64,000 nucleotides of DNA from an uncultured virus (IMG/VR IMGVR_UViG_3300017963_000243). Taxonomy: Duplodnaviria > Heunggongvirae > Uroviricota > Caudoviricetes. This document shows, piece after piece, positions 8-15,378 of the stretch. The stretch covers positions 1 through 64,000 of IMG/VR virus record IMGVR_UViG_3300017963_000243; one strand, given 5' to 3'. The position numbers were made by a program, and so were the translations under genes. The notes below the pieces were generated by a model. The model did no database searches, was not told where the DNA came from, and worked only from the letters and a program-made list of their open reading frames with translations. Position 1 is the first letter of the stretch. The number at the start of each line of letters is the position of its first letter.

Positions 8-883
8 TCAAATTGGTGTCGGAAGCGGCTTGCTGGGCGAATAGCGAAGCCGCGTGACTTCTTCTTTACGGTAGGCGTTCCACGCAATGATGCACTTCGC
101 GAAGATCTCTCTCCGCGTAGCTGCTGACTTGTTGGTGAGGATGTTGGCGCCGGAGTTGAGCGTGGCGGTGAGGAGGAAGTTGTTCAGCTGGCGGTCGGGA
201 AGGTCCGGAGAGATTCCCGTAGCGTCTCGGACAGCGGTCCAGAACCGTCGGCTGAAGTCTTCGCTGATCTTGTAGGTCTCGAAGATGGCGGCTACTACGG
301 CTCCCTTCTTCATGAACTTGAACCCCCCGGAACCCGACGTCTTGGAGAGCTCTTGTACGAAGAGGATGAAGTCCTCATTCTTGGTCAGGAGCTGCGCTCG
401 ATCCTCCCTGCGTTTGGCCATGTACTGCTCACCCCACTTGGCGTAAGCGAGCGCCGTCGTACAGAGATTGACGAGCCACGTGGGCATGTCCATGAGGGAC
501 TCGAGCGTCCCCGCGTAGACGCGGTTGACGTCACCGGCGTTTCGGGAGCTCACTCCAGAATCGAACTTGGAGTAGAGCTCGGCGACCTCCTCCATGTCCT
601 TGCACTCGTAGACCGTCACGTTGACACGCAGGCCCGAGTTGACGAGCTTCGGGTTGGTGTGGAAGAGGTAACTCGTGTGCTGTCCGTTCACGCGGTAGAC
701 GTCGTTGCCCACTTGAGCCGCCGCCCACTGAAAGACGATGGTCTTCTTGGTCTTGACGTCGGCACAGAGTTCTCGGATGCGCTTCTGGCTCAGCGGACGC
801 TCTCGAGGGACGGGCTCCATGGTGGCGTACTTCTTGGCCAGCGCCTTTGTTAACGCGGTCGTTTTGGTGTGCAGAATGCGCAT
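8..883 (-). CDS. ParB-like N-terminal / DGQHR-type domain protein
   Basis: RVNGQHT resembles the (D/N)GQH(R/T) ParB-N core; SD GGGAGG upstream. Confidence 0.55.
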   Translation of the reverse strand: MRILHTKTTALTKALAKKYATMEPVPRERPLSQKRIRELCADVKTKKTIVFQWAAAQVGNDVYRVNGQHTSYLFHTNPKLVNSGLRVNVTVYECKDMEEVAELYSKFDSGVSSRNAGDVNRVYAGTLESLMDMPTWLVNLCTTALAYAKWGEQYMAKRREDRAQLLTKNEDFILFVQELSKTSGSGGFKFMKKGAVVAAIFETYKISEDFSRRFWTAVRDATGISPDLPDRQLNNFLLTATLNSGANILTNKSAATRREIFAKCIIAWNAYRKEEVTRLRYSPSKPLPTPI

Positions 884-1619: not shown

Positions 1620-1632
1620 ACTGTCCTCCTTG

Positions 1633-1706
<74 letters not shown>

Positions 1707-1712
1707 GGTGTG

Positions 1713-1877
1713 TCGCTGTTTTCGTAACGTCCGCTATTGTACTTCACTGGATGCTAACGATGTCCATTCTGCAACCATGGTGATCCAGGGGTGAATCGTG
1801 ACAACTCTTCAGAGTTGGCGCGATGAACATCACATGGTTGCTTCGTAGTGTGCATCCAGTGATAGCGGACAGAGCGA
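1713..1877 (-). ncRNA. putative rod-shaped structured RNA (~165 nt)
   Basis: Nested inverted repeats 1729-1736/1863-1870, 1744-1754/1852-1862, 1771-1779/1833-1841, 1802-1807/1812-1817; lies between two tRNAs. Confidence 0.65.
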
Positions 1878-1953
1878 ATATGCGTGCACAGAATACACGC
1901 GATTCGAGAAAGTATCTTTCTCTTTGAGCGCTCCGACTCAAACCCACACTTTG

Positions 1954-2038
1954 TACCAGGGACGGGAATCGAACCCGTACGGAGTTACCTCCACAGGATT
2001 TTAAGTCCCGTGCGTCTACCTAGTTCCGCCACCCTGGC
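1954..2038 (-). tRNA. tRNA-Leu(UAA)
   Basis: Class II cloverleaf with long variable arm; loop CT-TAA-AA. Confidence 0.95.
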
Positions 2039-2595
2039 TATTTTTTGGAGATCAAGTCTTCAAGATTGGCAGGTAAGCTGTCAGCATTCTGCTGCACCAT
2101 TGGTTCTACCGGAGGAGGCTCGGGAAGATCAAACTGGTCCTCTTCGGGGAGCTCTTCGATAGCTGCGGAGAGAGGGTCGTCGATTCGGAGAGACTTGGAC
2201 ATCTTGTGCCCTCCGGACCCATAACCCATAGGAGCACCCGAACCGCCTCCACCAATGCCTCCCCCATAAACAGCAGGCTCAGGCCCGGATTCTTCTTCGA
2301 CAGCGCTGTCTACCATGCTGAGCTCGACGCGGAGCTCAGTCACCATGCTGAACAGCTTGGCGTTGATTGAACGTTGGTACTCGAGTTCCCGGGCGAGACG
2401 CTCACGATCCTTCTCAGCGCTCTTGAACTGGTCTCGAATCAGATCAAGAACCATCTCGCTCTTGTCGTCAGCTTTCTGGGCCTTTTCACCTGCGGTATCA
2501 AAAACATTGAATCCCACAGCAGTGATGAGAGCTGCTACCCCCGAGAGGATGCCGCCCCACGTCCCGGTAATCCTTGCCGCGCGTGATTCTGCCAT
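2038..2595 (-). CDS. hypothetical protein with N-terminal TM segment and coiled coil
   Basis: Hydrophobic WGGILSGVAALITAVGF, then a charged helical region; SD AGGAGG. Confidence 0.65.
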   Translation of the reverse strand: MAESRAARITGTWGGILSGVAALITAVGFNVFDTAGEKAQKADDKSEMVLDLIRDQFKSAEKDRERLARELEYQRSINAKLFSMVTELRVELSMVDSAVEEESGPEPAVYGGGIGGGGSGAPMGYGSGGHKMSKSLRIDDPLSAAIEELPEEDQFDLPEPPPVEPMVQQNADSLPANLEDLISKK

Positions 2596-2651
2596 GTCAG
2601 AAAACCTCCTGACTTAAGCATACGACGACTTTTACCAAAAAAGAATTAGGA

Positions 2652-3320
2652 TTAGCGGGTGTTAGGCACGTCAACAGTAGCGACGATTCGAACCCTGTTC
2701 AGATCTTCGTATGTCTGGAATGCGAGGGAAGGGAGGCCCTGAACGGTCACGCGGTCTCTAGCTCTGTCAGGAACAGAGAGGTCGTCTCTGTCGAGCTGGA
2801 TAGAGAAAGGATGGCCGCCCTTAAAGGACTGTGCGAAGACTCCCCCTGCCTGGAGGATGAAGGGGCGAGTCGCCACAGGATCTTCCGCAATGGTCTCGTT
2901 GTAGGGATCAAACGCACCGTAGTAGACTCCCACTGCTCCAACATCACAGCGAACGATCAGGCTCGTGAGCAACAGCTGCCCTCCAAACTTAGGCTGCATT
3001 GCCAGTCTATTCTCTACCGGAAACTGGATAGCGTAGAGCCAACCCGGATCGATGTAGATAGGGATCGACTTCAGGTAATCTGGGAAGTCTGAAAAGTCTT
3101 TAGCGTCGTTTGTAGGCCCCAGATCAAGAGTCGCTACAAGACGAGATTTAAAATCCTCATCGAAGTCGAAGTGGATTACGGGCTTCTTATCCGCAGCGTC
3201 ATTTTCTTGGAGAGGGAAAGTGAGCGCGCCTTCAGTTTTGATGTGCCCAGACCGGTTGTCATACTGGGCTACGAGTGCTGAAGCAGGAAACGCCTGGTTG
3301 GATGTGGGTGCAGATGCCAT
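2652..3320 (-). CDS. hypothetical (probable virion) protein
   Basis: 222 aa, coupled to the upstream gene; last gene of a putative late operon. Confidence 0.6.
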   Translation of the reverse strand: MASAPTSNQAFPASALVAQYDNRSGHIKTEGALTFPLQENDAADKKPVIHFDFDEDFKSRLVATLDLGPTNDAKDFSDFPDYLKSIPIYIDPGWLYAIQFPVENRLAMQPKFGGQLLLTSLIVRCDVGAVGVYYGAFDPYNETIAEDPVATRPFILQAGGVFAQSFKGGHPFSIQLDRDDLSVPDRARDRVTVQGLPSLAFQTYEDLNRVRIVATVDVPNTR

Positions 3321-3946
3321 TAGACGTACTCCACGAATCTGTAGAAGCTCGTCACAGAGAGGCGAACTCCCGTTGTAGTGGTAGCCTGAATCCCCAAGAG
3401 GCCCATGGCAGAGTTAGCGACTCCTGCTTCATCCGTCCCCATGAGGGGAGGGTTGGGGTCAGCCCAAAAAAGGAAATCTCCCTTTTCCATGGGGTATGGG
3501 ACGTACTGGGTAGACCTCACTGAAGGTCCGAGTTGCATCTGGTTATTGAGCATGATGCAGGACCCTTCAGTGCACTCAATGTAGAGTGCGACCAAGTACC
3601 CCCAGAGGCCCGGACCGTACTCGAAAGAGTATGCGGGTTCATATACGGGATACGCGGCGTAGAGCCCGTACTGATCGTCCAACATGTACCCCAAGCCCAC
3701 CGAAGGATCGAACGAGTGTTCAATAGAGTACATGGCGTGGTAGTCCACGTCTGATACTAACTCCTCGAGAACTGCCGATTTGTCGACATCAGGCTTACCC
3801 ATGTCGAACTCACTCGAGAAGTCTACTCCGAGTTTGAATTCGGTCTCAGGAAGCGTAAGAGGATTAGGCAGTAGCCCGAGGATTCCTGAGCCTACCGCGA
3901 AGCCTCCGAAAGCTCCCGAGCCAAATGCGCCTGATCCGAATCCCAT
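3320..3946 (-). CDS. hypothetical virion protein
   Basis: N-terminal GFGSGAFGSGAFGG repeat of the kind seen in phage tail/baseplate proteins. Confidence 0.55.
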   Translation of the reverse strand: MGFGSGAFGSGAFGGFAVGSGILGLLPNPLTLPETEFKLGVDFSSEFDMGKPDVDKSAVLEELVSDVDYHAMYSIEHSFDPSVGLGYMLDDQYGLYAAYPVYEPAYSFEYGPGLWGYLVALYIECTEGSCIMLNNQMQLGPSVRSTQYVPYPMEKGDFLFWADPNPPLMGTDEAGVANSAMGLLGIQATTTTGVRLSVTSFYRFVEYV

Positions 3947-3957
3947 GACTTACTCCG

Positions 3958-4416
3958 TTACTTGGCTGCCGTGGCCTGCTCCAACAAGAAAATTCCGGTG
4001 CCTCCGCTGTTCAAAAAAACAGGGATGTCTGCAACTCCGAACGGCCCAGCTCCTATGCCGGTACTCCCCACTATCCCAGGAGTATTCCACTTGACACCCG
4101 CAGGTCCTGATACGTATAGCGCCTGGCCTGAAGGAATAGCGAAGGGGCCTCCCATTAACCGGATGGACGCGAATCCCCACCGCGGAACGAGCAGGTACAC
4201 GACATCCAATAGCGTCAAGGTCGATGTAGGGCTATCCCAAGACATGTCCCCGTAGGTTTGAGGCCCCAAAATGATGCCGATACGCTGCTGCGTCATCATG
4301 ATCTCGATATCGAGATCCGACATCTGACCTTCGTATTGCTCGTCCCACGGATCGAGATCTGCAGCGGGATACCGAATGTTCAAGTTGGAAGTGTATCTGT
4401 AGTTCGGGTCAGCCAT
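3958..4416 (-). CDS. tail-fiber-like paralog 3
   Basis: Shares the MADP..T.nL.l.YP..dldPwD N-terminus with the two upstream ORFs. Confidence 0.55.
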   Translation of the reverse strand: MADPNYRYTSNLNIRYPAADLDPWDEQYEGQMSDLDIEIMMTQQRIGIILGPQTYGDMSWDSPTSTLTLLDVVYLLVPRWGFASIRLMGGPFAIPSGQALYVSGPAGVKWNTPGIVGSTGIGAGPFGVADIPVFLNSGGTGIFLLEQATAAK

Positions 4417-4427
4417 CTTTCACTCCT

Positions 4428-4901
4428 TTAAAGCGTAGACGGGTATGCGAAATGGTCTTGAATGCCCATGACGAATGCGCCTGCGATGTGAAGACCGAAT
4501 ACTACTTGCCCTCTAACGTAAGCGGCAGGGGCGGTAGGCGTCACAAACAACTCAGCAGCACCTATAGCGTACGTACTGTCCCAAGGGATATCCTCAGGGA
4601 CGTTCATCAACACGTAGTTGTCGGCTGGAACTACAAGAGGAGTGGCCCCGTCACCCCATGTAAAGACACCGCCAAAGATGGGACACAGCATTGTGAACCC
4701 ATTGATGGTGAGCGTGGTCGACGCAGTGTCCCACTCTATCTTGCGCCCAACGAACGCCAATCGTGCCGACTGCATGGCGAAAAGGATGGTCACGTCAAGT
4801 CGGTCCATCTGCTCGATGTACTTGTCATCCCACGGATCGAGATCCTTCGCAGGATACGATAAGTGGAGATTCGAAGTTACTCTGATATCAGGATCAGCCA
4901 T
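4428..4901 (-). CDS. tail-fiber-like paralog 2
   Basis: Begins MADPDIRVTSNLHLSYPAKDLDPWDD. Confidence 0.55.
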   Translation of the reverse strand: MADPDIRVTSNLHLSYPAKDLDPWDDKYIEQMDRLDVTILFAMQSARLAFVGRKIEWDTASTTLTINGFTMLCPIFGGVFTWGDGATPLVVPADNYVLMNVPEDIPWDSTYAIGAAELFVTPTAPAAYVRGQVVFGLHIAGAFVMGIQDHFAYPSTL

Positions 4902-4914
4902 GACTCAGCACTCC

Positions 4915-5409
4915 TTACGGGAACGAAATGGTACGCGATGTCGTCCTGAGGAGGAACGCGATCTCTCCAGGCATGGACCCGTCGTAAACTAATAGCGGGA
5001 TGCGTCTCTCGTTGGGTTCATAAGTAGACATGTCTGCGGTGAATATTCCGTTCGCGGCCCACATACCTGTACCTCTCCACCAAGGGTTAGGCGATGCTGA
5101 ACCGACATCAACATACGCAAGTTGTGAAGGCGATACCGCGAGGCTCGTGGGGCCAAGGGTGATGACTCCCCCGGTAGCAGAGACATACAGACGGATGTTA
5201 CCGTTGACTGTAAGCTGAGAACCATTCCACGTCAGATAAGTGTTTAAATCCCCTGCATCCACCAAAACAGTACCGATATTGACCGAATAGGCCAGCCACT
5301 TTTCAAGATCATTCATCTGCTGGATGATCTGCTTGTCATCAGGTATCAGGCCCGTGTTCGGGTACTTGAGCCTAAGATATTCAGTTTGTCGGGTGCTTGG
5401 ATCGGCCAT
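4915..5409 (-). CDS. tail-fiber-like paralog 1
   Basis: Begins MADPSTRQTEYLRLKYP; preceded by the TATACTT motif and SD AAGGAGG. Confidence 0.55.
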   Translation of the reverse strand: MADPSTRQTEYLRLKYPNTGLIPDDKQIIQQMNDLEKWLAYSVNIGTVLVDAGDLNTYLTWNGSQLTVNGNIRLYVSATGGVITLGPTSLAVSPSQLAYVDVGSASPNPWWRGTGMWAANGIFTADMSTYEPNERRIPLLVYDGSMPGEIAFLLRTTSRTISFP

Positions 5410-5474
5410 GGGAGTGCGCCTCCTTCTAGTGAATTTCAGCTAAAGTATAGGCCGAAAGCCAAAAAAATGCGACT

Positions 5475-5699
5475 TCAGTCTTCGGGGTCAGGTTCGAGTC
5501 GTGCCTCGGACTCTCGGATAGCAGCCAAGCACTTTGGGCAGTTGGAGTACTGCACCTCAGGGGTGTACTTGGTGCCATCCGTAGAGACGTAGACTTCGTC
5601 TAAGGGAGAGTCGTCTTTATCGAAGTCTGGAGACACCCACTTCCCGCTACAGCAGATTCTGTAACGGGGAGGGTCGTATGCGTCTGTGCAGTGAACCAT
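5475..5699 (-). CDS. small Cys-rich hypothetical protein (start revised to ATG 5699)
   Basis: SD GGGAGG precedes MVHCTDAY; contains CxxC. Confidence 0.55.
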   Translation of the reverse strand: MVHCTDAYDPPRYRICCSGKWVSPDFDKDDSPLDEVYVSTDGTKYTPEVQYSNCPKCLAAIRESEARLEPDPED

Positions 5700-5719
5700 G
5701 TCGGCCTCCCTACTACTAG

Positions 5720-5883
5720 AGTAGCACCTTTGGATTCGACATCCAAGGCGCTCCTGGCAGCCTCCTGTAGGCGCCATTCATCAGCTTACCGGGTTAATAT
5801 CTCCGTGTCAGGTACTAGAGATGCATGGCGCCTACAGGGGCAGCCGGAGGTCCTTGGATGTCGGACTCCGAACGTACGCTACT
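5720..5883. ncRNA. putative long rod-shaped RNA hairpin (~164 nt)
   Basis: GACATCCAAGG/CCTTGGATGTC (11 bp) and CCTGTAGGCGCCAT/ATGGCGCCTACAGG (14 bp) nested with further stems; intergenic. Confidence 0.65.
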
Positions 5884-5963
5884 GTGGCGCTAAATTATCC
5901 CGGCGAACAAGGACGTAACGTCCTCTACCCCACTCAGCGGTTTGGGGGTGCTAGTAGAGATTG

Positions 5964-6731
5964 CTATTGGTTTTCGTACAGCCGACCGGCGAGGTGTCCG
6001 TATCCGCGTTCGTAAAGATCGGAGAGGGTGTTTGCACGTTCGCGCGCTTCCCGCATCCCTTCGAGGGTACCTTCGCCTCCACCGAGAGCAGCTCCAGCAA
6101 TCTGGGATTGGAGACGTGAGCTAGTGTCCTCATCCTCACCACCCCCGAGACCACCCAAAGCGGCTCCTGAGAGAGCACCTTCGAGTCCACGCTCCGTCAT
6201 GAGCTCCTTCATGAGCCCTTCACGAATGTCTCCGTACTCTTGGGGTGTGAGCGGCTGCGCCGTCTGCTCTTGGATACCGCGAGCATGCGGTACGAGCCCC
6301 TCATGCGTGCCGTAAGGCATATGACGCGGAACGCGACCTTCCTGAGCAATCTCACCGAGGGTTGTCCCCCAACGCTTTCCGTGACGCTCAGCACCGCTAC
6401 GGCGCGATAAACCGCTCAAGGCACCAAGCCCACCGCCCCCGAGGAGACCCAGGCCGCCTCCGATGAGCGCACCCTTTCCTCCTCCGAGTCCGTATCCGAG
6501 GCCGCCTCCCAAGAGTCCTCCGAGGCCACCCCCGACGATGCCTCCCGTGGTGGGAGCATCACGGTGACGTTCGTAGCCTTCTTGGCCCTTCATCTTGGAA
6601 AACGCCTGGATCTCCTCAGGAGTAATTTCACGCCGCTTATTCCCCGTGAGGGCTGCGGCGATATCTTCTTCCGTGATCTCAGCCAACTTGGTCATCACTT
6701 CGCGGTAACCTTGAACAAATGCGGGATGCAT
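5964..6731 (-). CDS. glycine-zipper protein, probable virion internal protein (start revised to 6731)
   Basis: GGLGGLLGGGLGYGLGG repeats, N-terminal KLA motif, TATACTT motif and SD GAAGGAGG. Confidence 0.7.
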   Translation of the reverse strand: MHPAFVQGYREVMTKLAEITEEDIAAALTGNKRREITPEEIQAFSKMKGQEGYERHRDAPTTGGIVGGGLGGLLGGGLGYGLGGGKGALIGGGLGLLGGGGLGALSGLSRRSGAERHGKRWGTTLGEIAQEGRVPRHMPYGTHEGLVPHARGIQEQTAQPLTPQEYGDIREGLMKELMTERGLEGALSGAALGGLGGGEDEDTSSRLQSQIAGAALGGGEGTLEGMREARERANTLSDLYERGYGHLAGRLYENQ

Positions 6732-6767
6732 GGGGGAACCTCCTTCAAAGTTCCTCACAAGTATAGT

Positions 6768-7550
6768 TCAAGAGACCTCTACAATCCAAGGAGAATATGT
6801 CTTGTTTCTCTGGAAGTAGTAGCCGTGCTGGTTACAGACGAAACGCGTTTCGAAGTACGTAACGTCCACGCGAGGACCGTGGTCATGCCCGTAGACCCAC
6901 AGCTCAGGCTCGTACCGGTCTATGATCCTGGAGAGATCGGATTCGAAGGCTGCACGCGTGAGCGTCTTCAAGAACTTCGGAGGGTGTAGCTGTTTAAGAG
7001 GGGCGCAGTGGGTCACTACGACCGTGGGTCGGCGCTTGTTTCGTGTAGCCAGTGCCTCCTCGAGCCACTCACGACAACGCATATGCTCTCGCGTCCAGAC
7101 GAAGGGAGTCATCGGTCCATAATCCCCGCGAACCTTTATGACGGGTGCTCTCTCCTTCGAATCGATTTTGAAGTCCGTAATGGCCGTCTGAACAGCCAAG
7201 GCATCAAGAGGGTTGCTGATGTCCGACCAGAGAGTCGTACCTAGAAACTGAACACGCGAGATTGTTTGCATGTCCTTTTCTAGGAGGTAGACCGCAGGGA
7301 ACTCGGCGACGACTTTTCGGTATTCGTCCAGTGCGTCCGGGAAGTACCTGCCGTAGTACTCGTGGTTTCCCAAGACGTAGACGATGGGAATGTGCTTCTG
7401 CTTGAGGATCCTACGAAAGACTTTACGCAGACTGGCAGGCTTCTTGTGGATGTCGCCCGCCAAAACCAGCACTTCAGCGTCAGGATGGACTTCGATCTTC
7501 GTCTTCGAGTGGAGCTCCAGATGGAAGTCCGAGGCGATTTGAATTTTCAT
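6768..7550 (-). CDS. calcineurin-like metallophosphoesterase
   Basis: Motifs SDFHLE, LAGDI, LGNHEYY, VTH, YGHDH. Confidence 0.9.
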   Translation of the reverse strand: MKIQIASDFHLELHSKTKIEVHPDAEVLVLAGDIHKKPASLRKVFRRILKQKHIPIVYVLGNHEYYGRYFPDALDEYRKVVAEFPAVYLLEKDMQTISRVQFLGTTLWSDISNPLDALAVQTAITDFKIDSKERAPVIKVRGDYGPMTPFVWTREHMRCREWLEEALATRNKRRPTVVVTHCAPLKQLHPPKFLKTLTRAAFESDLSRIIDRYEPELWVYGHDHGPRVDVTYFETRFVCNQHGYYFQRNKTYSPWIVEVS

Positions 7551-7574
7551 CTTCGAGCTCCTTTGTTTTGAGAT

Positions 7575-7919
7575 TTACCTCGTAAAGTCCAGCTTGGTCT
7601 GGCGCGGGTCGTCTGGTATCGGAGGCCCAAGGTCTTCTTCCTGAGTCTCTGGAGTCCGGAAATCCAGCTCCTCTGGGATCGTCCAGAGTCGAGGCAGCTT
7701 CTCTACTTCAGTTACGCTGTCAATGTCGGGGTGGTCGCTCGCGAAGTCGTCTAGGTCCCAACCCGAGTACGCCTCTACTATGTCTGTTATGTCAGGAGCT
7801 ACGTTGTCTCTAGCTGAATCCTTGGTGTCTGCGTACACGTAGACTTCAGCTACTTCCACCGCCGTGCGTGATACTTTAACTTTGAACATCGGCATCGCCG
7901 TCACCTCCCCTTGCTGCAC
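7575..7919 (-). CDS. hypothetical protein
   Basis: Acidic ORF in operon; start uncertain. Confidence 0.55.
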   Translation of the reverse strand: MQQGEVTAMPMFKVKVSRTAVEVAEVYVYADTKDSARDNVAPDITDIVEAYSGWDLDDFASDHPDIDSVTEVEKLPRLWTIPEELDFRTPETQEEDLGPPIPDDPRQTKLDFTR

Positions 7920-8184
7920 GGGCTTTCTTTAGACGCTCCGCCATGGCTGCTCGTTGCTCTTCCGAAATTTCTCGTTTGGTGTCCTCCTTGAGAACCGCGC
8001 CTTTGGCACGCGGATTATACCTCGACCAGTCGAAGTCAGGCTCTAATTTACGGTACGGCATCCAGCGGTAGAGAGAGCAGCTAGGAACCTCACAATCAAC
8101 CTTGCCATCTTCGTACTGTCCGCAGCACTCGTGGCATTTTTTGAGCATAGCTTCACTGCGTCCTGGTCCTTTAGACTTGGCCAT
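7876..8184 (-). CDS. Cys-rich hypothetical protein
   Basis: CHECCG...CEVPSCSLY pattern; SD AGGAG. Confidence 0.6.
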   Translation of the reverse strand: MAKSKGPGRSEAMLKKCHECCGQYEDGKVDCEVPSCSLYRWMPYRKLEPDFDWSRYNPRAKGAVLKEDTKREISEEQRAAMAERLKKARAARGGDGDADVQS

Positions 8185-8357
8185 GAGGTCACTCCTGTGG
8201 GTTTGTAAAAGTCCTCGTCTTTCCGAGGCGTCACCGGTTCCGTCCCTTGTCTGATAATGCTGTTCGCTCCTCCCACGGGCCCACCAAGACTGGGCCTTCT
8301 ACTCTTGGCCTCAGCCTTCTAGGGAGGGTCAGTCACCGGAAACCATCTCTCAAGCAC

Positions 8358-8562
8358 TCTCACACTACTGTGATGGGAAGTATCCCACCCGTGGTTCTTG
8401 CCAGGGTATTGACTAAGCCTACATTCGTCCACTCGTCCGTAGGCTTAAGAGATACGCTGGCTTGAACCTGGGGTGGGTTCTTGCCGACTGCTAGTGACAT
8501 AATTAGCCACTATGAGAACGTAACGTTCTCTGTCTCGAGATGTAGTAGACACTAGTGTGGGA
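8358..8562 (-). ncRNA. putative multi-stem structured RNA (~205 nt)
   Basis: Closing stem CACACTA/TAGTGTG, three short hairpins and a ~95-nt rod (8384-8477). Confidence 0.6.
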
Positions 8563-8563
8563 T

Positions 8564-9133
8564 CTAGACTTCTGGGTACTCGTACTCGACGAAGCAAAGC
8601 GCGACGTAGACCAGGCCGTACGCAGCGTCAACGATAATGTCCCGAGTGTAGTAGGTCACATCAACGATATCGAAAGTCCTCGGGTCTCCCTTGTACCGTC
8701 TTTCGACGATACCTTCGAGGTCCTTCTTGAGAATGGCCTTAGCTTTCTCTTTCGAACCGTGACCTTCGTACTCGGCGGCGAAACCCCCGAGGTGCTCGCG
8801 ATTACCGTCATCGTCCACGACGTAAACTTGGCACGTACCGATACCGGCACAGAGGTGCTCCCCCTCGACACCCTCCATCTGAGCTTTGATAGTTTCGAGC
8901 ACTGCACCATGGTGGACCAACCCGAGCTTCTTAGCTTGCTCGAGCTTGATCTCCTTGGCTTCCGGCGGAAGAACGCTGGTGTACGTCATCACGTTGAAGT
9001 TTTCGATGCCGCCATCCAGGAGGGCCATATCATATGCGGAAGTCTCGTAGTGGTCAGAGCCCGTCTCAGCACTGGACTGCCCCGCACCGGAGGTTACGAA
9101 GTAGAGTGTAGGAATTCGACATTTGGTTCTCAT
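8564..9133 (-). CDS. pdaD: pyruvoyl-dependent arginine decarboxylase (PdaD family)
   Basis: AYDMALLDGGIENFNVMTYT-SVLPP self-cleavage region; GFAAEYEG. Confidence 0.85.
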   Translation of the reverse strand: MRTKCRIPTLYFVTSGAGQSSAETGSDHYETSAYDMALLDGGIENFNVMTYTSVLPPEAKEIKLEQAKKLGLVHHGAVLETIKAQMEGVEGEHLCAGIGTCQVYVVDDDGNREHLGGFAAEYEGHGSKEKAKAILKKDLEGIVERRYKGDPRTFDIVDVTYYTRDIIVDAAYGLVYVALCFVEYEYPEV

Positions 9134-9438
9134 CTGTGTTTTCTCCCCTTCAGACGTTTCGTATTGATGTTGTTAGCTACCGGAATCATACGATCTCGCG
9201 CCACAGGATTGGCGGTGTGTACCCCTATAAAAGGCGCATAGTTGACGTACTCGTGCGCACGCCGTTCGATGCGATAGAGGATGTCGTACCCAGTCTTGGT
9301 TCCTCCAAGATCGTGATCAAGACTGATAACATCAAAGTCCCAGTCGTTCTGCTCGAGGAGCTTCATCGCAGATTTGTAACTTTTGGCCCAGATCCAACCG
9401 TCGGGAGCGGGACGTACGTCGTCTACCCAGAGTTTCAT
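9130..9438 (-). CDS. cyclic-phosphate-processing receiver domain protein
   Basis: MKLWVDDVRPAP...ISLDHDLG..TGYD...VHTANPVAR signature. Confidence 0.85.
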   Translation of the reverse strand: MKLWVDDVRPAPDGWIWAKSYKSAMKLLEQNDWDFDVISLDHDLGGTKTGYDILYRIERRAHEYVNYAPFIGVHTANPVARDRMIPVANNINTKRLKGRKHR

Positions 9439-10319
9439 CGCTTCTTTTTCTTACCTCGTTTAATCGGCTTCTTGGTGCCAGGGTCGGTTTTGAAGCTCAT
9501 ATCGAAGAAGCCCTTCTCGTCGCGCATGTCCTCGTCGGAGATTTCCAGGGTGTCAGGCTCACCGACACCCAGGACCCCCCCGATATATTGGGAGATCTCC
9601 TGGTAGACCTCGTAAGGATCTGCAACTTTCATGTAACCGACTTTACGTAACGCATCGTTGACGTGGAGGGCCAGACATCCACGACCGTAGGGACCGTCCA
9701 TCCTTCTCAATGTTATGATGGGAGACTTGAAGTGTTGGAAGAGCCGTGAGTCGTCTCTAGGCAGTCGCTTGTTGAAGAATGCCTCGAACTCTTCTCGATG
9801 CAGTTCGTAGATGTCACCGTCTTTTCTGTGTTTACGTTTCCGCTGTTCCTTCTTGGAAAGTTTAGCGTAATACAGTGTCCTGAGGCGCTTAGGGAACTTG
9901 TCTACGATTTTGTCAGCTTGTTGGACGTTGTACGCGAAATCCACAGTGGCGTCGAAGTCGTCTAATGAACAGCTGTACCGTGCTTTATTCCCGTATCGGA
10001 ACCGCAGGCAGGGGCGGATCTTGCCACACACTCCCACCACGAGGATATTGACCGAAAAATGGAAAGAGTCTTCTCTTCCTTCGAGTTCAGCACGCCAACA
10101 GTTTTCCTGAGGTTCCCAGAAGAGGTCCATCCCGGGAGTCTCGACGTCAACTTCCCCGTGGAGTTCTCCCTGGGCGGTTAAGTCGGTGTAGATTTTTCGA
10201 AGGGTGTCTCCCTCGTTGACGCCGTAGCGTGTAACCTTACGGAGATACACGAGAGACAGATCGACACCGTGTGCTTGAACTGAGTCGTAGTAATCACGAA
10301 ACTTCGAAATGATTCTCAT
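9435..10319 (-). CDS. conserved phage hypothetical protein (start revised to 10319)
   Basis: MRIISKFRDYYD start after SD AAGGA; the longer predicted start overlaps tRNA-Asn. Confidence 0.7.
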   Translation of the reverse strand: MRIISKFRDYYDSVQAHGVDLSLVYLRKVTRYGVNEGDTLRKIYTDLTAQGELHGEVDVETPGMDLFWEPQENCWRAELEGREDSFHFSVNILVVGVCGKIRPCLRFRYGNKARYSCSLDDFDATVDFAYNVQQADKIVDKFPKRLRTLYYAKLSKKEQRKRKHRKDGDIYELHREEFEAFFNKRLPRDDSRLFQHFKSPIITLRRMDGPYGRGCLALHVNDALRKVGYMKVADPYEVYQEISQYIGGVLGVGEPDTLEISDEDMRDEKGFFDMSFKTDPGTKKPIKRGKKKKR

Positions 10320-10334
10320 GTCGTTTTCCTTTCG

Positions 10335-10406
10335 AGGCCCGCGTTGGGATCGAACCAACGACCTGGTGGTTAACAGCCACCTGCTCTACCGCTGAGCTAG
10401 CGAGCC
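10335..10406 (-). tRNA. tRNA-Asn(GUU)
   Basis: Cloverleaf; anticodon arm GGTGG-CTGTTAA-CCACC. Confidence 0.93.
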
Positions 10407-10496
10407 AACGCGCGAGTGCTGCCAATGGAGAGTCCTAAACAGTTGTTTTTGGTTACGGCAGCACCCGCGCAACATCCAAGTTTACATAGTAAAGCC

Positions 10497-10850
10497 TTAG
10501 GAGGCGACCTTCAAATCCTTCTCGGACACTCCCCTAATGTAGTCCTTGGCGCTGTCGATCCAGGACTGGATGTACAGCTCCTCACCGTCGAACCTCTTGG
10601 CGATCTTGGCGATCTCCTTGAAGTTGGGGGGACACTCGGTGTGTCTCTCGATGGCCTCGTACGGGACTCTACGCAGAAGCCCGTAGGCAAGTAGGTTGTC
10701 TCTTGCGGCCCAGCGCACAGTAGTAGTGCGATGGTGATTGAGACGCCACTTGGCCATCCCGTTTACCTTCCGGGCTTCTTCCCGGATGGTGCGTGCTTCG
10801 TCTGCGAGGTTTTTGATTTTGACCCGAAGGTGGATTATTCGTTCGTTCAT
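10497..10850 (-). CDS. conserved phage hypothetical protein under leader-peptide control (start revised to 10850)
   Basis: SD AAGGAG before MNERIIHLRVKIKNLADEAR; basic helical protein containing LAYGLLRRVPY. Confidence 0.75.
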   Translation of the reverse strand: MNERIIHLRVKIKNLADEARTIREEARKVNGMAKWRLNHHRTTTVRWAARDNLLAYGLLRRVPYEAIERHTECPPNFKEIAKIAKRFDGEELYIQSWIDSAKDYIRGVSEKDLKVAS

Positions 10851-10957
10851 CGTCTTTCTCCTTGTTGGTGTTGTCTCCACGGGAACAGAGAAAGACGTGA
10901 AGGGGGGCCTCTAGCGGTTTTGTATTCAGGTGAATCTCATGTGCTTATCCTATTCAT
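10847..10957 (-). promoter_or_regulatory. leader ORF with in-frame UGA, RGPP arrest motif and SD-sequestering hairpin
   Basis: Translates MNRIST*DSPEYKTARGPPSRLSLFPWRQHQQGERR*; 10-bp stem 10888-10897/10851-10860. Confidence 0.7.
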
Positions 10958-10978
10958 GGTTGCAGAGGATGTCAACTG

Positions 10979-11051
10979 CGCCCCCACCAGGACTCGAACC
11001 TGGAACGGCGTGGATTGAAAGCCAGCTACTCTGCCATTGAGTTATAGGGGC
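10979..11051 (-). tRNA. atypical tRNA (anticodon UUC or UCA; enlarged anticodon arm)
   Basis: Good acceptor, D and T arms; anticodon/variable region GCTGG-CTTTCAAT-CCACGC-CGTT is 1-2 nt longer than standard. Confidence 0.75.
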
Positions 11052-11057
11052 TATGTG

Positions 11058-11993
11058 TTACAGATTCGGAATGTTGTGCTCGAGGTACGAGGGGATTATC
11101 TCATGACAGTTGCCACACGCTAAGACCTTTTCCTGCGTATGCTTCTGGATGTGCCACCATGGTGCGAGAATCGAGGACCCACACACCATGCACTTTCCAG
11201 GATTTTTGTACTTCACCTTCCTCTCTTCCCAGTGGTAAGTGGGTGTGATCCCTCTGGACCAATGCCAAAGCCCTTCGCTGATGGAAAAAACGTAAGCAAG
11301 GTACTCGTAAGTGTGTAGCGCGTAATGAGGGTCTTCGACAATCTCGATCTCTTCTATCGAGTTCTCTGCGTTACGTGTCCAGTTAGCAGTACCTCGTATA
11401 GCCGCCGTAGGGATGTACTTTCCACCTTTACCCGGCAATAGCCGCACCGCGTGTTTGAGGTGCATTAGTGGACTCGTCTCATTTTCTCTAAGCGGAGCAC
11501 GGCTCCCTCGAAAATCTCCTACAAGACGTACGGCGTCTATCATTCCGTAGTCGTTTTGTCCGTCACGACGACTCAGGTGTGCAAAACAGTTACCCGGTAA
11601 CTGGTTACGTCTCACGTAACAGACGAGATTGTTGTACGCCCGGGCAACGCGTAGTGTAGGGCGGAACTTATCCACAACTACTGCGCAGTTTCCGTGTTCT
11701 AACGCGTTGATGAGGTCTTTGTGTGTCAGGATATTGAGTCCTGCCAGGATCATCCCGTCAGCCCTGTTAGTCTCACGTATAAACTTAATAATTTCGTCCA
11801 TGAAGTTTGCACGGTAACGCGTTACGTTTACGATCTTGGCGTACGTACGTTTTTGCGGGAGTGACGGAGCTCCCCGCGTACCCGCGTAGGTGGCGAGGTC
11901 ACTGTTAAAATTTTGGTCAGGTGCTGGACGACTGCTGGGAGTTGCCTCATACGTTTTCATTTCTAGACCTTTCTCTTGTGTCTCTAGACGCAC
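11058..11993 (-). CDS. phospholipase D-like (HKD/Nuc) domain protein with C-terminal Zn ribbon
   Basis: MHLKH...GTANWTRNA..SIEEI resembles the HxK...G(S/T)xN PLD motif; CMVC and CGNC at the C-terminus. Confidence 0.65.
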   Translation of the reverse strand: MRLETQEKGLEMKTYEATPSSRPAPDQNFNSDLATYAGTRGAPSLPQKRTYAKIVNVTRYRANFMDEIIKFIRETNRADGMILAGLNILTHKDLINALEHGNCAVVVDKFRPTLRVARAYNNLVCYVRRNQLPGNCFAHLSRRDGQNDYGMIDAVRLVGDFRGSRAPLRENETSPLMHLKHAVRLLPGKGGKYIPTAAIRGTANWTRNAENSIEEIEIVEDPHYALHTYEYLAYVFSISEGLWHWSRGITPTYHWEERKVKYKNPGKCMVCGSSILAPWWHIQKHTQEKVLACGNCHEIIPSYLEHNIPNL

Positions 11994-12309
11994 TTTTAAG
12001 GATGTGCGCGTGTAACCTATTGAGTTATAGGGGCGTTTCCGAAGGTGTGCTACTACGCCAAAGACCTGTCTTCTACCCGGCGGCTATCTCCCGCTGTTCT
12101 ACGCGTCGCCTACCGCCGAAAACACCGCGCAGAACACCAGCTGTAGCACGGCTGGAACACGCCCCCTGGACCTCAGACGTTTACCTTGCTCAAGGGCTCA
12201 ATCTATTCGGATCCAGAGAGGGAGTACACTTGCAGCCTCAGGTCCAGTTTTTATTCGGCTAGTAACAAGCCGCCAACTAGCTGCCGGGCCTACGTGCCTC
12301 TGCGAAGAT

Positions 12310-12357
12310 GGCGGGCCACTCTTTAAAGGATGGCTGCCTCTAAGCCAACCTCCCGCC
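12310..12357 (-). ncRNA. small RNA matching 23S rRNA helices 43-44 (uL11-binding site)
   Basis: GGAGGTTGGCTTAGAGGCAGCCATCCTTTAAAGAGTG closed by GGCGGG/CCCGCC. Confidence 0.75.
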
Positions 12358-12367
12358 AGAAACGCTG

Positions 12368-12441
12368 TCGGGGCGATAGGATTCGAACCTACGGCATCCA
12401 GCTCCCAAAGCTGGCGCGCTACCAGACTGCGCCACACCCCG
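12368..12441 (-). tRNA. tRNA-Pro(UGG)
   Basis: 5' end CGGGGTG; anticodon arm CCAGC-TTTGGGA-GCTGG. Confidence 0.95.
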
Positions 12442-12526
12442 TAAAAAAGAGCAGTGAGACGGAGTGGGGATGTGGGGGGAACATCCGGGGATTTCCATCT
12501 CACTGCTCAAGAGAATGATACTGCGA

Positions 12527-12913
12527 TTAGGTGCCGAAGAGAAGGGACGATGCTCGACGCGTAGCGTCTTGTAGCCATTCCTGAAGTTTTTCAGCTGCTT
12601 CCAAGTCGATACCTTCGTCCTTAGCCATCTTGGCAACCTCTTCCTGGATCTCTGCAACCTTGAGGAGGTTCTCTGCGTAGGTTCCATCCTGATCCTTCTC
12701 TAGCGGAGTAACCATGAAGTCCGGAACGACGGTAGGCGCATCTTGGTCCCTTCGGAGCATCCAAAGCTTCTCAGGATCGAGGGATATGGTTATACCCCGG
12801 TAGTGTACTTGATCTGTGTGCGTCTCCCTCACGGGGAACCTGACAGAGATGCGGCACTGTCGTCCCGAGCTCGGGATGATGTTGATGATAGGTTCCCCTA
12901 TGATGTACGCCAT
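12527..12913 (-). CDS. hypothetical protein (start revised to 12913)
   Basis: SD AGGAGG directly after the tRNA-Gln CCA; begins MAYIIGEP. Confidence 0.65.
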   Translation of the reverse strand: MAYIIGEPIINIIPSSGRQCRISVRFPVRETHTDQVHYRGITISLDPEKLWMLRRDQDAPTVVPDFMVTPLEKDQDGTYAENLLKVAEIQEEVAKMAKDEGIDLEAAEKLQEWLQDATRRASSLLFGT

Positions 12914-12922
12914 GGTTCCTCC

Positions 12923-12998
12923 TGGATGGGGCAGAGGGACTCGAACCCCCAACACTCGGCACCAAAAGCCGATGATCTACCAGTTGATCTATGCCCCA
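12923..12998 (-). tRNA. tRNA-Gln(UUG)
   Basis: Acceptor TGGGGCA/TGCCCCA; arm TCGGC-TTTTGGT-GCCGA; encoded CCA. Confidence 0.95.
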
Positions 12999-13009
12999 AG
13001 AAAAAAAGG

Positions 13010-13352
13010 GGACAGGCGCCCCAGAGCTTGGATAGTCGGATATCGGGTAATCGCAGCCGCGCTTCTTCCAGCTTCATAACTTCCACTGAAAGCTAGATCG
13101 CGGCGTTTCGGTTGTTCGTGCAGTCGGTACAGTCGGACGTTCGGAGTTCGGCTGTTCACACAGTCGGAGTTCCTGGTCCATGAGACACGCCGTGTGAGGG
13201 CGCGTACCGTGTGGGGTGAGGCTTAAAAGGCCAATCCACATGGGCTGTACTTCATCTTTTTTCAAATGATGATATCGATCCGCAACGATGTCACCGGCGA
13301 CACCTACGGCTTAGGGTGCCGTGCAAACCCTTGCTCTGCGCTACGCCTGTCC
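13010..13352 (-). ncRNA. putative ~345-nt structured RNA with internal ~8-nt periodic repeats
   Basis: Terminal stem GGACAGGCG/CGCCTGTCC plus CAGAGC/GCTCTG followed by a U-tract; internal hairpins; nine CCGA(A/C)Y-like units at 13106-13174. Confidence 0.7.
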
Positions 13353-13376
13353 TATGTAGTACGCTCTAGGAGCGTT

Positions 13377-14015
13377 CTACACCGAGAAGTTGTCGAGAAC
13401 CGTCTTGGACACCTCGACCTGGGTGTCCCAGTTGGTCTTCTGGATGCACGCGTCCACCTCCCGCAGCTTGCGCTGCAGCGTGTCGACGACCTGGAAGGGC
13501 TTGAGCTCCGAGGGAGCCTTGCGCTTGACCTTGGTCACCAGGTCCCCCAGACCGTCGGCGATGGGGACGCGCTCGGAGATCTCCTGGAAGAGCTCCTCCG
13601 CCGAGACGCGGAAGTTGTGGGGGGCCGGGGCGCGGCGGATGCGATCCTCGAGCTCCTTGCGCCGGACGAGCAGCTCGGCCAGCTTGACGGTGGCGGGTCC
13701 CGTGGACGCGACCTCCTCGTCCGACATCAGGTCGTGGGTGACCTCGACGTCCGTGACCCAGTTGGCCTGCTGCACGACGCTGTCCGCGAGGCGCCGCTGG
13801 TGCGCGTAGTAGTTGGTCTCCTTCTCCAGGAGGCCCTTGTCCACCAGGCTGACGTGACCGACCACCTGGTCGATCTCGTCGTTGACCTTGCGCCGCTGGA
13901 CGCTGTCACGGGTGATACCCGCCTCCTGCGCTCCCAAGCGTCCGCTGAAGAGGGCGTTGAGCTCCTTACGACGCAGGAGCAGCTCAGCCAAGGCGATTTT
14001 CTTCTTGTCGGTCAT
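13377..14015 (-). CDS. DIP1984-like protein with two tandem repeats (start revised to 14015)
   Basis: LAELLxRRKEL...NWxTxVEV occurs twice; SD AAGGAGGT; very strong GC3 codon bias. Confidence 0.7.
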   Translation of the reverse strand: MTDKKKIALAELLLRRKELNALFSGRLGAQEAGITRDSVQRRKVNDEIDQVVGHVSLVDKGLLEKETNYYAHQRRLADSVVQQANWVTDVEVTHDLMSDEEVASTGPATVKLAELLVRRKELEDRIRRAPAPHNFRVSAEELFQEISERVPIADGLGDLVTKVKRKAPSELKPFQVVDTLQRKLREVDACIQKTNWDTQVEVSKTVLDNFSV

Positions 14016-14096
14016 GATCCGTACCTCCTTCGTAGTTCTGAGACGCGAAAGCGTCCGATAGGGGAAAGTACGGACTTGTACCTCCTTTGAGACTTG

Positions 14097-14110
14097 TTTT
14101 TCAAAGAGCA
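14097..14110 (-). promoter_or_regulatory. boxA-like antitermination site
   Basis: TGCTCTTTGAAAAA matches the rrn boxA consensus. Confidence 0.65.
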
Positions 14111-14243
14111 CTCTGTAGGAAGCAAGGCTCCCATTACACCTTATTACAGACTATTGCGCGCCCACCTGTGGTCTGAACATGAGTACCACATGCCCGTCAG
14201 ACCCTACCGTGCAGGTACTTGGTCTAGTCTCGCGCACCGATAG

Positions 14244-14317
14244 TGACCCCGGCGGGGCTCGAACCCGCAATCTTCGGCGTGAAAGGCCGATGTCCTAAAC
14301 CATTAGACGACGGGGCC
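14244..14317 (-). tRNA. tRNA-Glu(UUC)
   Basis: 5' end GGCCCCGTCGTCTAATGGTTTAGGAC; arm TCGGC-CTTTCAC-GCCGA. Confidence 0.95.
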
Positions 14318-14546
14318 AAAATAAGGAGAAGGCTGCCCGGGACTTCGTGAAGTAACCAGACCGAAGACATCGACCATCCGGACCTTCTCCTGACTACGTT
14401 AACAAAGGGGGAGTACTTATAGCCTGCGCCCTCCCCAGGCGCATGCGTCTTTTGCTTCTCGGACTCAACGCAACTTGTCCCGGTATTGTACCTTATTTTG
14501 TATAGCGACAAAGAAGCCCATCGCTTTTTCACAGCTGCCAACTGTG

Positions 14547-14932
14547 TGGTGGAGCCGCCGGGAGTCGAACCCGGGTCCGCCTACGGGTCATGTACTGATC
14601 TTCACGTGTGTGGTCTCCCTTTTCGTTTCAGACGGTGACTTCCGAGAGACGAGTCATCACGGTCTTACTGCGCTTTCGTTTACCCGGCGTCATCGCGCAG
14701 AACTCAGCCTGGGTTTGCCCGTGTAATTACGCCCCCTGGGTTACTCGAGCTCCTCACTCAGGGCACGCCCGCGCCGTTTAAGCGGCCACGGCGAGCGGAC
14801 TCGCCATGGGGGTCGGGAAGGGAACTACGTTGTCGGCAGTTCGAGTTGAGTGTCCTTTTTAACCCGCCGAACACACAAGGCGGAACACGCACAGTACACT
14901 TCCATCGCACACGTCGAAACCGTGTCGGCCCC
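14547..14932 (-). ncRNA. ssrA: tmRNA
   Basis: 5' GGGGCCGACACGGTTTCGAC, 3' GGTTCGACTCCCGGCGGCTCCACCA (G3-U70); tag ORF 14837-14778 ADNVVPFPTPMASPLAVAA*. Confidence 0.95.
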
Positions 14933-15075
14933 ATGAGAAGGATCTAAGTTGCCATGGTGTCCTCCAATCTGTTGGTCCCTACCAGGGGTGCGTGCTCTTG
15001 CCATCAGTCCGAGAAGGTTATCCGAGGGTTATGAGCCCCCCGACTCCCTCAAGGTCCGGACTCGAGCGCGGGTTT

Positions 15076-15211
15076 ATTGGTCTTTCCTAGTAGCTCCTCG
15101 AGGCAGCGGGAGTCGGTCCGAGTTTACGGACTCACAACTTCCATCACCAAGGCGCTTCCCGTTTCCTTGGTTGCTGAGGAGCCCTACAAGGAGCTACTAG
15201 GAAAGACCAAT
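15076..15211 (-). ncRNA. structured RNA enclosed by a perfect 23-bp inverted repeat
   Basis: ATTGGTCTTTCCTAGTAGCTCCT (15076-15098) pairs with 15189-15211; the 90-nt interior forms a two-hairpin junction. Confidence 0.65.
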
Positions 15212-15224
15212 TTTTCAAAGAGTA
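15211..15224 (-). promoter_or_regulatory. boxA-like antitermination site
   Basis: TACTCTTTGAAAAA. Confidence 0.55.
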
Positions 15225-15305
15225 CGCCTCCTACCTTACTCCTCCAGAGGACCTAGGAATCTGGAGTTTCATCCATGCCTCCACTCCAATACCTCGGAGA
15301 CGTGA

Positions 15306-15378
15306 TAGCGGGGACCGGATTCGAACCGGCGTGACGGGATTATGAGTCCCGCGACTGAAACCACTCGTCTACCCCGCA
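15306..15378 (-). tRNA. tRNA-Met(CAU), initiator-like
   Basis: Loop CT-CAT-AA; mismatched 1:72 pair (U.U) and A11-U24. Confidence 0.9.

Follow-up and report, generated by a model that had tools for sequence, protein, structure and literature searches.

Genes for tRNAs, tmRNAs, ribosomal proteins and translation factors are known from viral genomes, and phages also encode RNAs that imitate a host RNA to divert a protein, pseudo-ToxI repeats and RNA anti-CRISPRs being examples. These decoys copy antitoxin or CRISPR repeat RNAs, and to our knowledge none of them imitates a ribosomal functional centre. In tmRNA, the paired ends of the molecule build a domain that imitates tRNA. Paired ends forming a mimic of a translation RNA around a variable interior are common to tmRNA and Y RNA (YrlA; PMC4201824), and in phages these RNAs are found beside tRNA and RNA-repair genes. 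Ribosomal protein sites of rRNA are imitated off the ribosome by leaders of r-protein mRNAs (PMC7247131, citing Meyer, 2018; L11 is not mentioned in the accessible part of this article). Such leaders act in cis, being 5' UTRs of r-protein operons, and what they copy is usually limited to a few key nucleotides. The GTPase-associated centre (GAC) of bacterial 23S rRNA, comprising the top of H42, H43, and H44, is the uL11- and thiostrepton-binding domain of approximately 58–60 nt, and L11 binding needs its tertiary fold (PMC6239185, accessible part).

The RNA considered here, further referred to as split-GAC RNA, is encoded in a 64,000-nt stretch of DNA (the window), which comes from a 78.6-kb IMG/VR virus record judged 44% complete. 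It has in common with the bacterial GAC the H43 stem-loop, the 1082:1086 turn and GAGU, the H44 stem with its hexaloop, and the closing helix, and the positions conserved in its family match those that should build the tertiary fold (judging by the accessible part of PMC6239185). Unlike the GAC, which is a three-way junction within the 2.9-kb rRNA, split-GAC RNA is free-standing in a phage tRNA array, is a four-way junction with an arm of tens to hundreds of nucleotides and a UUUG linker, has A1101 instead of U, and its closing helix is free in sequence; it matches only 52 positions of the 23S rRNA model, with 24.3 bits compared to the gathering cut-off of 50.

Split-GAC RNA resembles r-protein leaders as an off-ribosome imitation of an r-protein's rRNA site. 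Still, it is viral, copies a nearly complete domain, has no r-protein gene nearby and is proposed to act in trans; it does not qualify as a leader, as the downstream ORF 11058–11993 is without an r-protein domain and the 78.6-kb record contains no L11 or L12 domain. The layout and the surroundings recall those of tmRNA and Y RNA, but split-GAC RNA imitates rRNA, not tRNA, and neither YrlA (RF02553) nor tmRNA (RF00023) matches over 11980–12370. Rfam 15 has no family for the element, with LSU rRNA below the cut-off being the only match either at gathering thresholds or at E up to 10, and no phage mimic of the GAC or of the uL11 site is described in the full-text literature searched, including the accessible parts of PMC8040213, PMC7247131, and PMC11109978. 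Hence, the split-GAC family is apparently undescribed in Rfam 15 and the searchable literature, and, as far as these sources show, a rebuilt piece of rRNA is not known in viruses.

Parts of the split-GAC RNA

The earlier note on this DNA described a 48-nt hairpin, in which 37 nt resembling 23S rRNA are clamped by a GGCGGG/CCCGCC stem, and interpreted it as a copy of H43 with the start of H44. The letters of the 37 nt (minus-strand 12353–12317, GGAGGTTGGCTTAGAGGCAGCCATCCTTTAAAGAGTG) are as reported, and so is their likeness to 23S rRNA, since 36 of 37 coincide with the RF02541 consensus in the cmscan alignment (12354–12310 vs model positions 1095–1146, E 1.1e-5 for the stretch searched). The single mismatch is G for A at the position numbered 1070. 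Here and below we use the E. coli GAC numbering, which we take to be the standard one, anchored on the RF02541 alignment. The presence of tRNA-Pro upstream on the same strand is also confirmed. On the contrary, the hairpin anatomy gives way to a far longer element of approximately 333–335 nt (12365–12033, minus strand), a four-way junction with H44 rebuilt. The features of the locus are as follows.

1632–15378, minus strand: eight tRNA genes (ARAGORN)
14547–14932, minus strand: tmRNA, a separate gene (Rfam, 110.5 bits)
12367–12441, minus strand: tRNA-Pro, anticodon TGG (ARAGORN; Rfam tRNA, 67.2 bits at 12368–12441)
12033–12365, minus strand: whole split-GAC RNA (R1 match, model positions 1–169 of 169)
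12353–12365, minus strand: 5' strand of the closing helix, GCGUUUCUGGCGG, an H42-like stem; pairs at 12 of 13 positions with 12045–12033 and is formed in the MFE fold
12318–12352, minus strand: copy of 23S positions 1056–1090, i.e., H43 with its loop, the 1082:1086 turn and GAGU (cmscan, RF02541)
12063–12317, minus strand: variable arm of 255 nt, inserted at 1090/1091, with a base stem that covaries in relatives
12310–12316, minus strand: GCCCGCC, the 3' half of the local clamp, inside the 5' strand of the arm; alternative partner of GGCGGG (12357–12352)
12059–12062, minus strand: UUUG linker joining the arm to the H44 copy, conserved in relatives
12047–12058, minus strand: H44 copy, GCGUAGUAGCAC, 23S positions 1091–1102 (sequence; R1 alignment)
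12033–12045, minus strand: 3' strand of the closing helix, CCUUCGGAAACGC, complementary to 12365–12353 (R1; MFE fold)

The 3' end of tRNA-Pro is followed, after 2 nt and on the same strand, by the closing strand of the split-GAC RNA. The nearest long ORF downstream is 11058–11993, and, as it starts only at 11993, the split-GAC stretch is non-coding. The covariance model R1, built from relatives as described below, matches the window at 12366–12032(-) with 79.1 bits (E 1.9e-23), and this is the sole match within the 64 kb. The H43 copy corresponds to the previously noted 37 nt minus the first and the last G. The H44 copy starts approximately 259–288 nt past the H43 module; it is followed by AC and then by the 3' closing strand, with the A at 12046 being the unpaired equivalent of position 1103. 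At the base of the arm, GGCC (12317–12314) pairs with GGUC (12066–12063).

All secondary-structure elements of the GAC are present in the window copy (H43, the 1082:1086 pair, H44, and the closing helix), not as a continuous three-way junction of approximately 58 nt, since the 255-nt arm and the 4-nt linker break the 5' strand of H44. Together, both RNA ends, the H43 copy, the arm with its linker, and the H44 copy form a four-way junction that rebuilds the whole uL11-binding GAC domain. The window copy also has the features that define the family described below, that is, the closing helix, the 4-bp arm base stem, UUUG, and an H44 copy ending with AGCAC-AC. The MFE fold of 12366–12029 contains the long-range closing helix and H43, while the energy of the full-length fold is not unusual compared to shuffled sequences (z = –1.1).

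The local clamp, in which GGCGGG immediately precedes A1057 and GCCCGCC directly follows the 37 nt, competes with the pairings of the closing helix and of the arm base stem. It is absent from the MFE fold, and both the family model and the covariation in relatives favor other partners for these bases. The flanks, earlier described as non-rRNA, indeed consist of tRNA-Pro and unique sequence immediately next to the H43 copy, but further downstream they contain the copy of H44, which is complete and not limited to its start. With these flanks and a score below the gathering cut-off, the locus is not a 23S gene.

Public sequencing runs were used for verification of the assembly. Seven DNA runs contain at least half of the sampled words of the stretch, including two from which this DNA possibly originates. 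In four other runs from three studies, we observe contigs with zero differences that extend from 11800 or 12054 up to 12351–12353: the run X4 has 11800–12353 in one contig, and X3, X5, and X7 have overlapping contigs 11800–12082 and 12054–12351/12353. These identical contigs show that the H43 copy is joined to unique phage DNA and is not a chimeric rRNA insertion, the outcome that the earlier note had named as speaking against its interpretation. None of the listed contigs spans 12353–12367, as the assembly graph breaks at rRNA-like and tRNA words; the evidence for this junction is that the two closing strands are complementary. Depth is very high at 12296–12357, and loose ends lead into true 23S, both of which are explained by rRNA of other organisms. 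Three DNA runs each contain one contig with a 12092/12313 joint, which skips 220 nt of the arm (12093–12312). The evidence for this joint is weak (85% likeness, 39 letters on the shorter side), and it may represent a related short-armed phage from the same habitats. No RNA run is listed among the 13 runs matching the stretch.

A family of split-GAC RNAs in phages

Relatives of the window element were identified via blastn, pattern searches and scanning with the covariance model, the first and the last being of the kind proposed in the earlier note as a check of conservation. These searches demonstrate that the conserved unit exceeds the H43 module. The family comprises at least 124 distinct full-length members of 105–389 nt (median 215.5), nearly all of them in phage contigs, and the carriers are phages of many host phyla. 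A blastn search with 67 nt yields an unannotated H43-like module in complete genomes of cultured large phages infecting Pseudomonas (pf16, Milchi, Astolliot, UNO-G1W1), Xanthomonas (XacN1, XaC1, XbC2), Aeromonas (4_4572), Erwinia (Kaldavass and the pEa_SNUABM series), Serratia (BF), and Cronobacter (GAP32); the remaining matches are records with true 23S. Out of 13 inspected loci, 12 are mimics and one is genuine 23S. The latter, from Paenibacillus phage Pd_22F (L007, 83376–84612), is situated at the genome end, with a continuous GAC and rRNA flanks, and is probably host DNA or contamination of the record. Megablast of 24 kb of the window against the phage collection yields no close relative.

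A degenerate pattern of the 5' module is found in at least 117 stretches of IMG/VR. In 85 out of 104 non-redundant loci among the matches listed it is accompanied by the 3' motif GCGUA(A/G)NAGCAC, which is located 74–367 nt downstream in the 83 true elements; the other two loci are genuine 23S, where this distance is 29 nt, and were left out. The 19 loci that fail the strict 3' expression mostly have single-base variants of the motif. The 3' motif alone occurs in at least 119 viral stretches; all 80 of those fetched match R1, and 76 are complete elements ending at the motif. Among 80 stretches from bacterial genomes and MAGs with the same motif, there are just seven strong and four weak R1 matches, so the family is essentially viral, and in bacterial genomes the motif is mostly a chance match. 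Each of five complete phages tested (5/5) has a single R1 copy.

The R1 model is based on 31 short-armed relatives, aligned with MAFFT, with the structure specified by hand. In these relatives, 93.5% of 713 cells are standard pairs, compared to 69.1% in shuffled alignments, none of 500 shuffles reaching 93.5%; controls with slid registers are 32–54% paired. Changes on both sides are observed at 15 out of 23 pairs, and the covariation score is 0.637 vs 0.155. The same is true for the larger sample of 83 members. The eight base pairs of the closing helix are standard in 81–100% of members, compared to 39–45% for shifted registers, with AU, UA, GC, and CG all common; in the 31 relatives, nine of nine pairs of the homologous helix change on both sides. 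The four pairs of the arm base stem are standard in 77–100% of the 83 members, and all four change on both sides in the 31 relatives. The linker is TTTG in 70 out of 83 members, each position being conserved at 92–98% in 77 rows chosen regardless of the linker. The pairs 1058:1080 and 1082:1086 are also among those covarying in the family, and these are the two GAC pairs able to vary without breaking the fold. Such conservation with compensatory changes, seen in more than a hundred phage contigs, bears out the interpretation of the locus as a free-standing phage imitation of the uL11-binding GAC and not a fragment of an rRNA gene.

To analyze conservation of single positions, each module was scored only in rows selected via the other module, yielding 76 rows for the 5' module and 77 rows for the 3' module. 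In the 5' module, G1059, U1060, G1063, G1087, A1088, and G1089 are invariant, G1055, G1062, U1066, C1075, A1077, C1079, A1084, A1085, and U1090 are conserved in at least 96%, and G1071 and C1072, in 97–98% of rows. Looser positions are 1061, which is free, A1067 (86%), and A1070 (77%), the latter being G in the window. In the 3' module, positions 1091–1095 and 1098–1103 are conserved at 92–100%: G1093, A1098, and A1103 are invariant, and G1091, C1092, G1099, and C1100 are conserved at 98%, with the exceptions being compensated. In the H44 loop, U1094 is present in 98% and A1095, in 92%, while 1096 and 1097 vary. A1101 is found in 97% of the family, while the Rfam bacterial consensus has U at this position.

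In the accessible part of PMC6239185, A1061, A1067, and A1069 are described as making no hydrogen bonds to the GAC fold, and A1070 and A1095, as invariant in rRNA yet lacking tertiary contacts. As the fold-building positions are tight and several non-contact positions are relaxed, the observed pattern favors selection for the tertiary fold recognized by uL11, although this is an argument from conservation only. At the same time, A1067 and A1095, dispensable for the fold, are kept in 86–92%, and hence contacts beyond the C-terminal domain of uL11 may matter.

The arms, on the contrary, are not conserved in sequence across the family. The smallest member (L347, 105 nt) has a plain 6-bp hairpin as its arm. 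A sub-motif CACCCC-(5–7 nt)-GGUAAGG, absent from the window, occurs in the arms of 25 out of 124 collected members (e.g., L022, L087, L107). It folds into a small hairpin located towards the arm's 3' side and capped by a GNRA-like loop, and its closing pair covaries by eye. The window arm shares helices with two relatives, L077 and L023, and a search with the arm pattern GAATAAAAACNNGACCTGAG recovered only two contigs, both already known.

Several members have unusual organization. The whole element of L107 (approximately 281–487) resides within the enlarged P6 of a group I intron (154–582; RF00028, 64.8 bits), as a 192-nt insert where the model has 30. In L062, a second R1 match (456–781(-), 52.2 bits) is located directly upstream of the main copy (244–447(-), 110.9 bits), and the pair may be a tandem duplicate. 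The element of L387 (438–574(-)) has an extra hairpin in the 3' strand of the H43 copy, implying that a second site tolerates expansion.

Genomic neighborhood

All eight tRNAs and the tmRNA of the window are on the minus strand, the same as the split-GAC RNA, and are interleaved with ORFs. The neighborhoods of relatives were analyzed in 72 non-redundant 10-kb loci, which include the window and one contig with true 23S. We observe tRNAs within 5 kb in 53 loci, all but one of these tRNAs being on the strand of the element; the remaining 19 loci have none. In 18 out of 72 loci, a tRNA ends 6–15 nt upstream of the core. This places it at the foot of the closing helix, an arrangement shared by the window.

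Protein neighbors differ between loci: clustering of 1,922 ORFs yields no family shared by more than seven out of 72 loci. The recurrent ones are metallophosphoesterase-like proteins (seven loci), a PNK-phosphatase–RNA ligase fusion (five), a family with one GIY-YIG endonuclease member (five), and, more rarely, a CCA-adding enzyme (four) and a DUF2828+DUF7788+VWA protein (four), which we take to be Ro60-like. Genes for RNA repair and tRNA maturation, including 2'-5' RNA ligase, lie beside the members at L006 (XacN1), L263/L268, L328/L291, and L305/L266. Thus the neighborhood consists of tRNA and RNA-repair genes and not of a dedicated partner.

The L11 domain is absent from the 78.6-kb record and from all five complete carrier phages tested (5/5), and no L12 domain scores above the cut-off in the same genomes, the match in Milchi having 16.4 bits with the cut-off of 25.9. 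As the carriers have no L11 gene and no recurrent neighbor family, the partner of the RNA must be host-encoded. The window also contains a metallophosphoesterase gene (6768–7550) and an ORF for pyruvoyl-dependent arginine decarboxylase (8564–9133(-), PF01862, E 1.4e-25), which is an auxiliary gene of a kind unusual in phages; other neighbors of the element are uninformative.

Possible functions and implications

Three of the readings considered are highly improbable. The small RNA of approximately 48 nt, with H43 closed by the local GGCGGG/CCCGCC stem and no H44, draws on the six-base complementarity, which does exist, and on the local cmscan alignment, which closes with part of the clamp; yet it ignores the H44 copy and the 13-nt complementary closing strand downstream, the family model spanning 12366–12032, the full-length fold without the clamp, and the fact that in relatives the equivalent bases have their partners in the distal 3' strand and on the arm's 3' side. 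Just as improbable is an interrupted mini-exon, in which an intron at 1090/1091 would be spliced out to produce a 58-nt GAC copy. The arm does occupy the precise U1090/G1091 boundary and has G as its last letter, removal of the arm and the linker restores the consensus GAGUGCGUA, and L107 is situated in a group I intron. However, the group I intron model (RF00028) and other intron families yield no match at gathering cut-offs over the 64 kb or at E up to 10 over 11980–12520, arms that are 25-nt hairpins are too short for self-splicing introns, the arm base stem and the UUUG linker are conserved as structure, and the L107 intron encloses the whole element and does not split it; on these grounds we reject the intron. 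Even less credible is a functionless origin as a captured scrap of rRNA, host contamination or an assembly chimera. True 23S does occur in public phage records (e.g., L007 from Pd_22F and L059), and Logan contigs do break at rRNA-like words, but this reading is already contradicted by the identical contigs from four runs of three studies joining the H43 copy to unique phage DNA, by compensatory changes that keep every helix, and by A1101, the UUUG linker and the arm, which are absent from the Rfam bacterial consensus.

The split-GAC RNA probably imitates the uL11 site away from the ribosome, as judged from its sequence and conservation, and the remaining question is what reads it. We place capture of a host factor first, with uL11 as the most likely one, while regarding this as a tentative assignment that could well prove wrong. 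The ranking of uL11 follows from its fold-dependent binding, the best conservation at the fold positions, the host-encoded partner, and a universal target matching the wide host range. Still, for a uL11 decoy a plain 58-nt GAC would suffice, while all of at least 124 collected members carry the arm and the UUUG linker, and ribosome-bound uL11 may not be titratable within the time of infection. An unlikely but coherent alternative is a decoy substrate that spares ribosomes from an abortive-infection or competitor toxin modifying or cutting the GAC. We know of no anti-phage system targeting the GAC, which weakens this alternative, as does the need to compete with tens of thousands of ribosomes; positions 1096 and 1097 of the H44 loop vary freely. 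A GAC-directed toxin does exist, as Tre23 ADP-ribosylates 23S H44 at 1095–1098 and blocks the GTPase of EF-G (PMC8661411, accessible part), and the two freely varying positions are inside its target. The rest of the H44 loop is copied faithfully (G1093 100%, U1094 98%, A1095 92%, A1098 100%), and the RNA is found among tRNAs, tmRNA and, in some relatives, RNA-repair genes (PNK-phosphatase–RNA ligase in 5/72 loci, CCA-adding enzyme in 4/72), which form islands that may counter attacks on the translation apparatus; the many host phyla of the carriers also fit a universal target. Somewhat less probable than the toxin decoy is that the GAC fold serves only as a handle, recruiting uL11 or providing a nuclease-resistant cap that stabilizes or localizes the RNA, with the arm as the effector. 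The layout would then be that of tmRNA or Y RNA, where paired ends form the mimic domain and the interior works, and this agrees with the arm always being present and often large (255 nt here, in elements of 105–389 nt), with recurrent arm sub-motifs such as CACCCC..GGUAAGG (25/124), with the helices shared by the window arm with L077 and L023, and with the presumably Ro60-like protein near 4/72 loci. It is difficult to reconcile with the plain 6-bp hairpin of the smallest member (L347) and with arms being unconserved across the family while the GAC core is conserved; moreover, Rfam yields no matches in the arms of 20 loci, apart from the group I intron around the L107 copy. The obligatory arm with the fixed UUUG linker is explained by none of these three, be it the uL11 decoy, the toxin decoy or the scaffold.

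The mechanism may be as follows. The split-GAC RNA would be co-transcribed with the tRNAs and released from the transcript by the enzymes of tRNA processing; once folded, it would act off the ribosome, capturing a host factor that reads the GAC fold, with uL11 as the first candidate. As for the benefit to the phage, one may speculate that an excess of phage tRNAs remains uncharged and creates a risk of uL11-dependent RelA activation, which a decoy made alongside the tRNAs would blunt. This RelA and uncharged-tRNA rationale is one that we infer, and the 19 out of 72 loci without a tRNA within 5 kb do not fit it easily. In a broader form, with phages of many host phyla making a free-standing GAC copy from their tRNA operons and diverting either uL11 or another GAC reader, the proposal is a little more secure, and we consider it nearly as likely to be right as wrong.

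The finding is real, and it is larger and better supported than first noted, while its function is something we infer from sequence comparison. The idea is directly testable, as there are cultured carriers (pf16, BF, 4_4572, and XacN1) and standard assays of uL11–GAC binding exist. The family also represents a natural series of GAC variants with arms at one position, useful for RNA-folding studies. Should the broader proposal hold, split-GAC RNA would be the first case of a virus encoding an imitation of an rRNA domain, and it would represent a new class of counter-measures at the level of translation control, with uL11-dependent stringent signaling switched off, or GAC-directed immunity disarmed. 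Conserved, self-closing GAC copies in more than a hundred phages point to an unrecognized contact between phage and host in the control of translation, which could involve the stringent response, the base of the stalk or toxins directed at rRNA.
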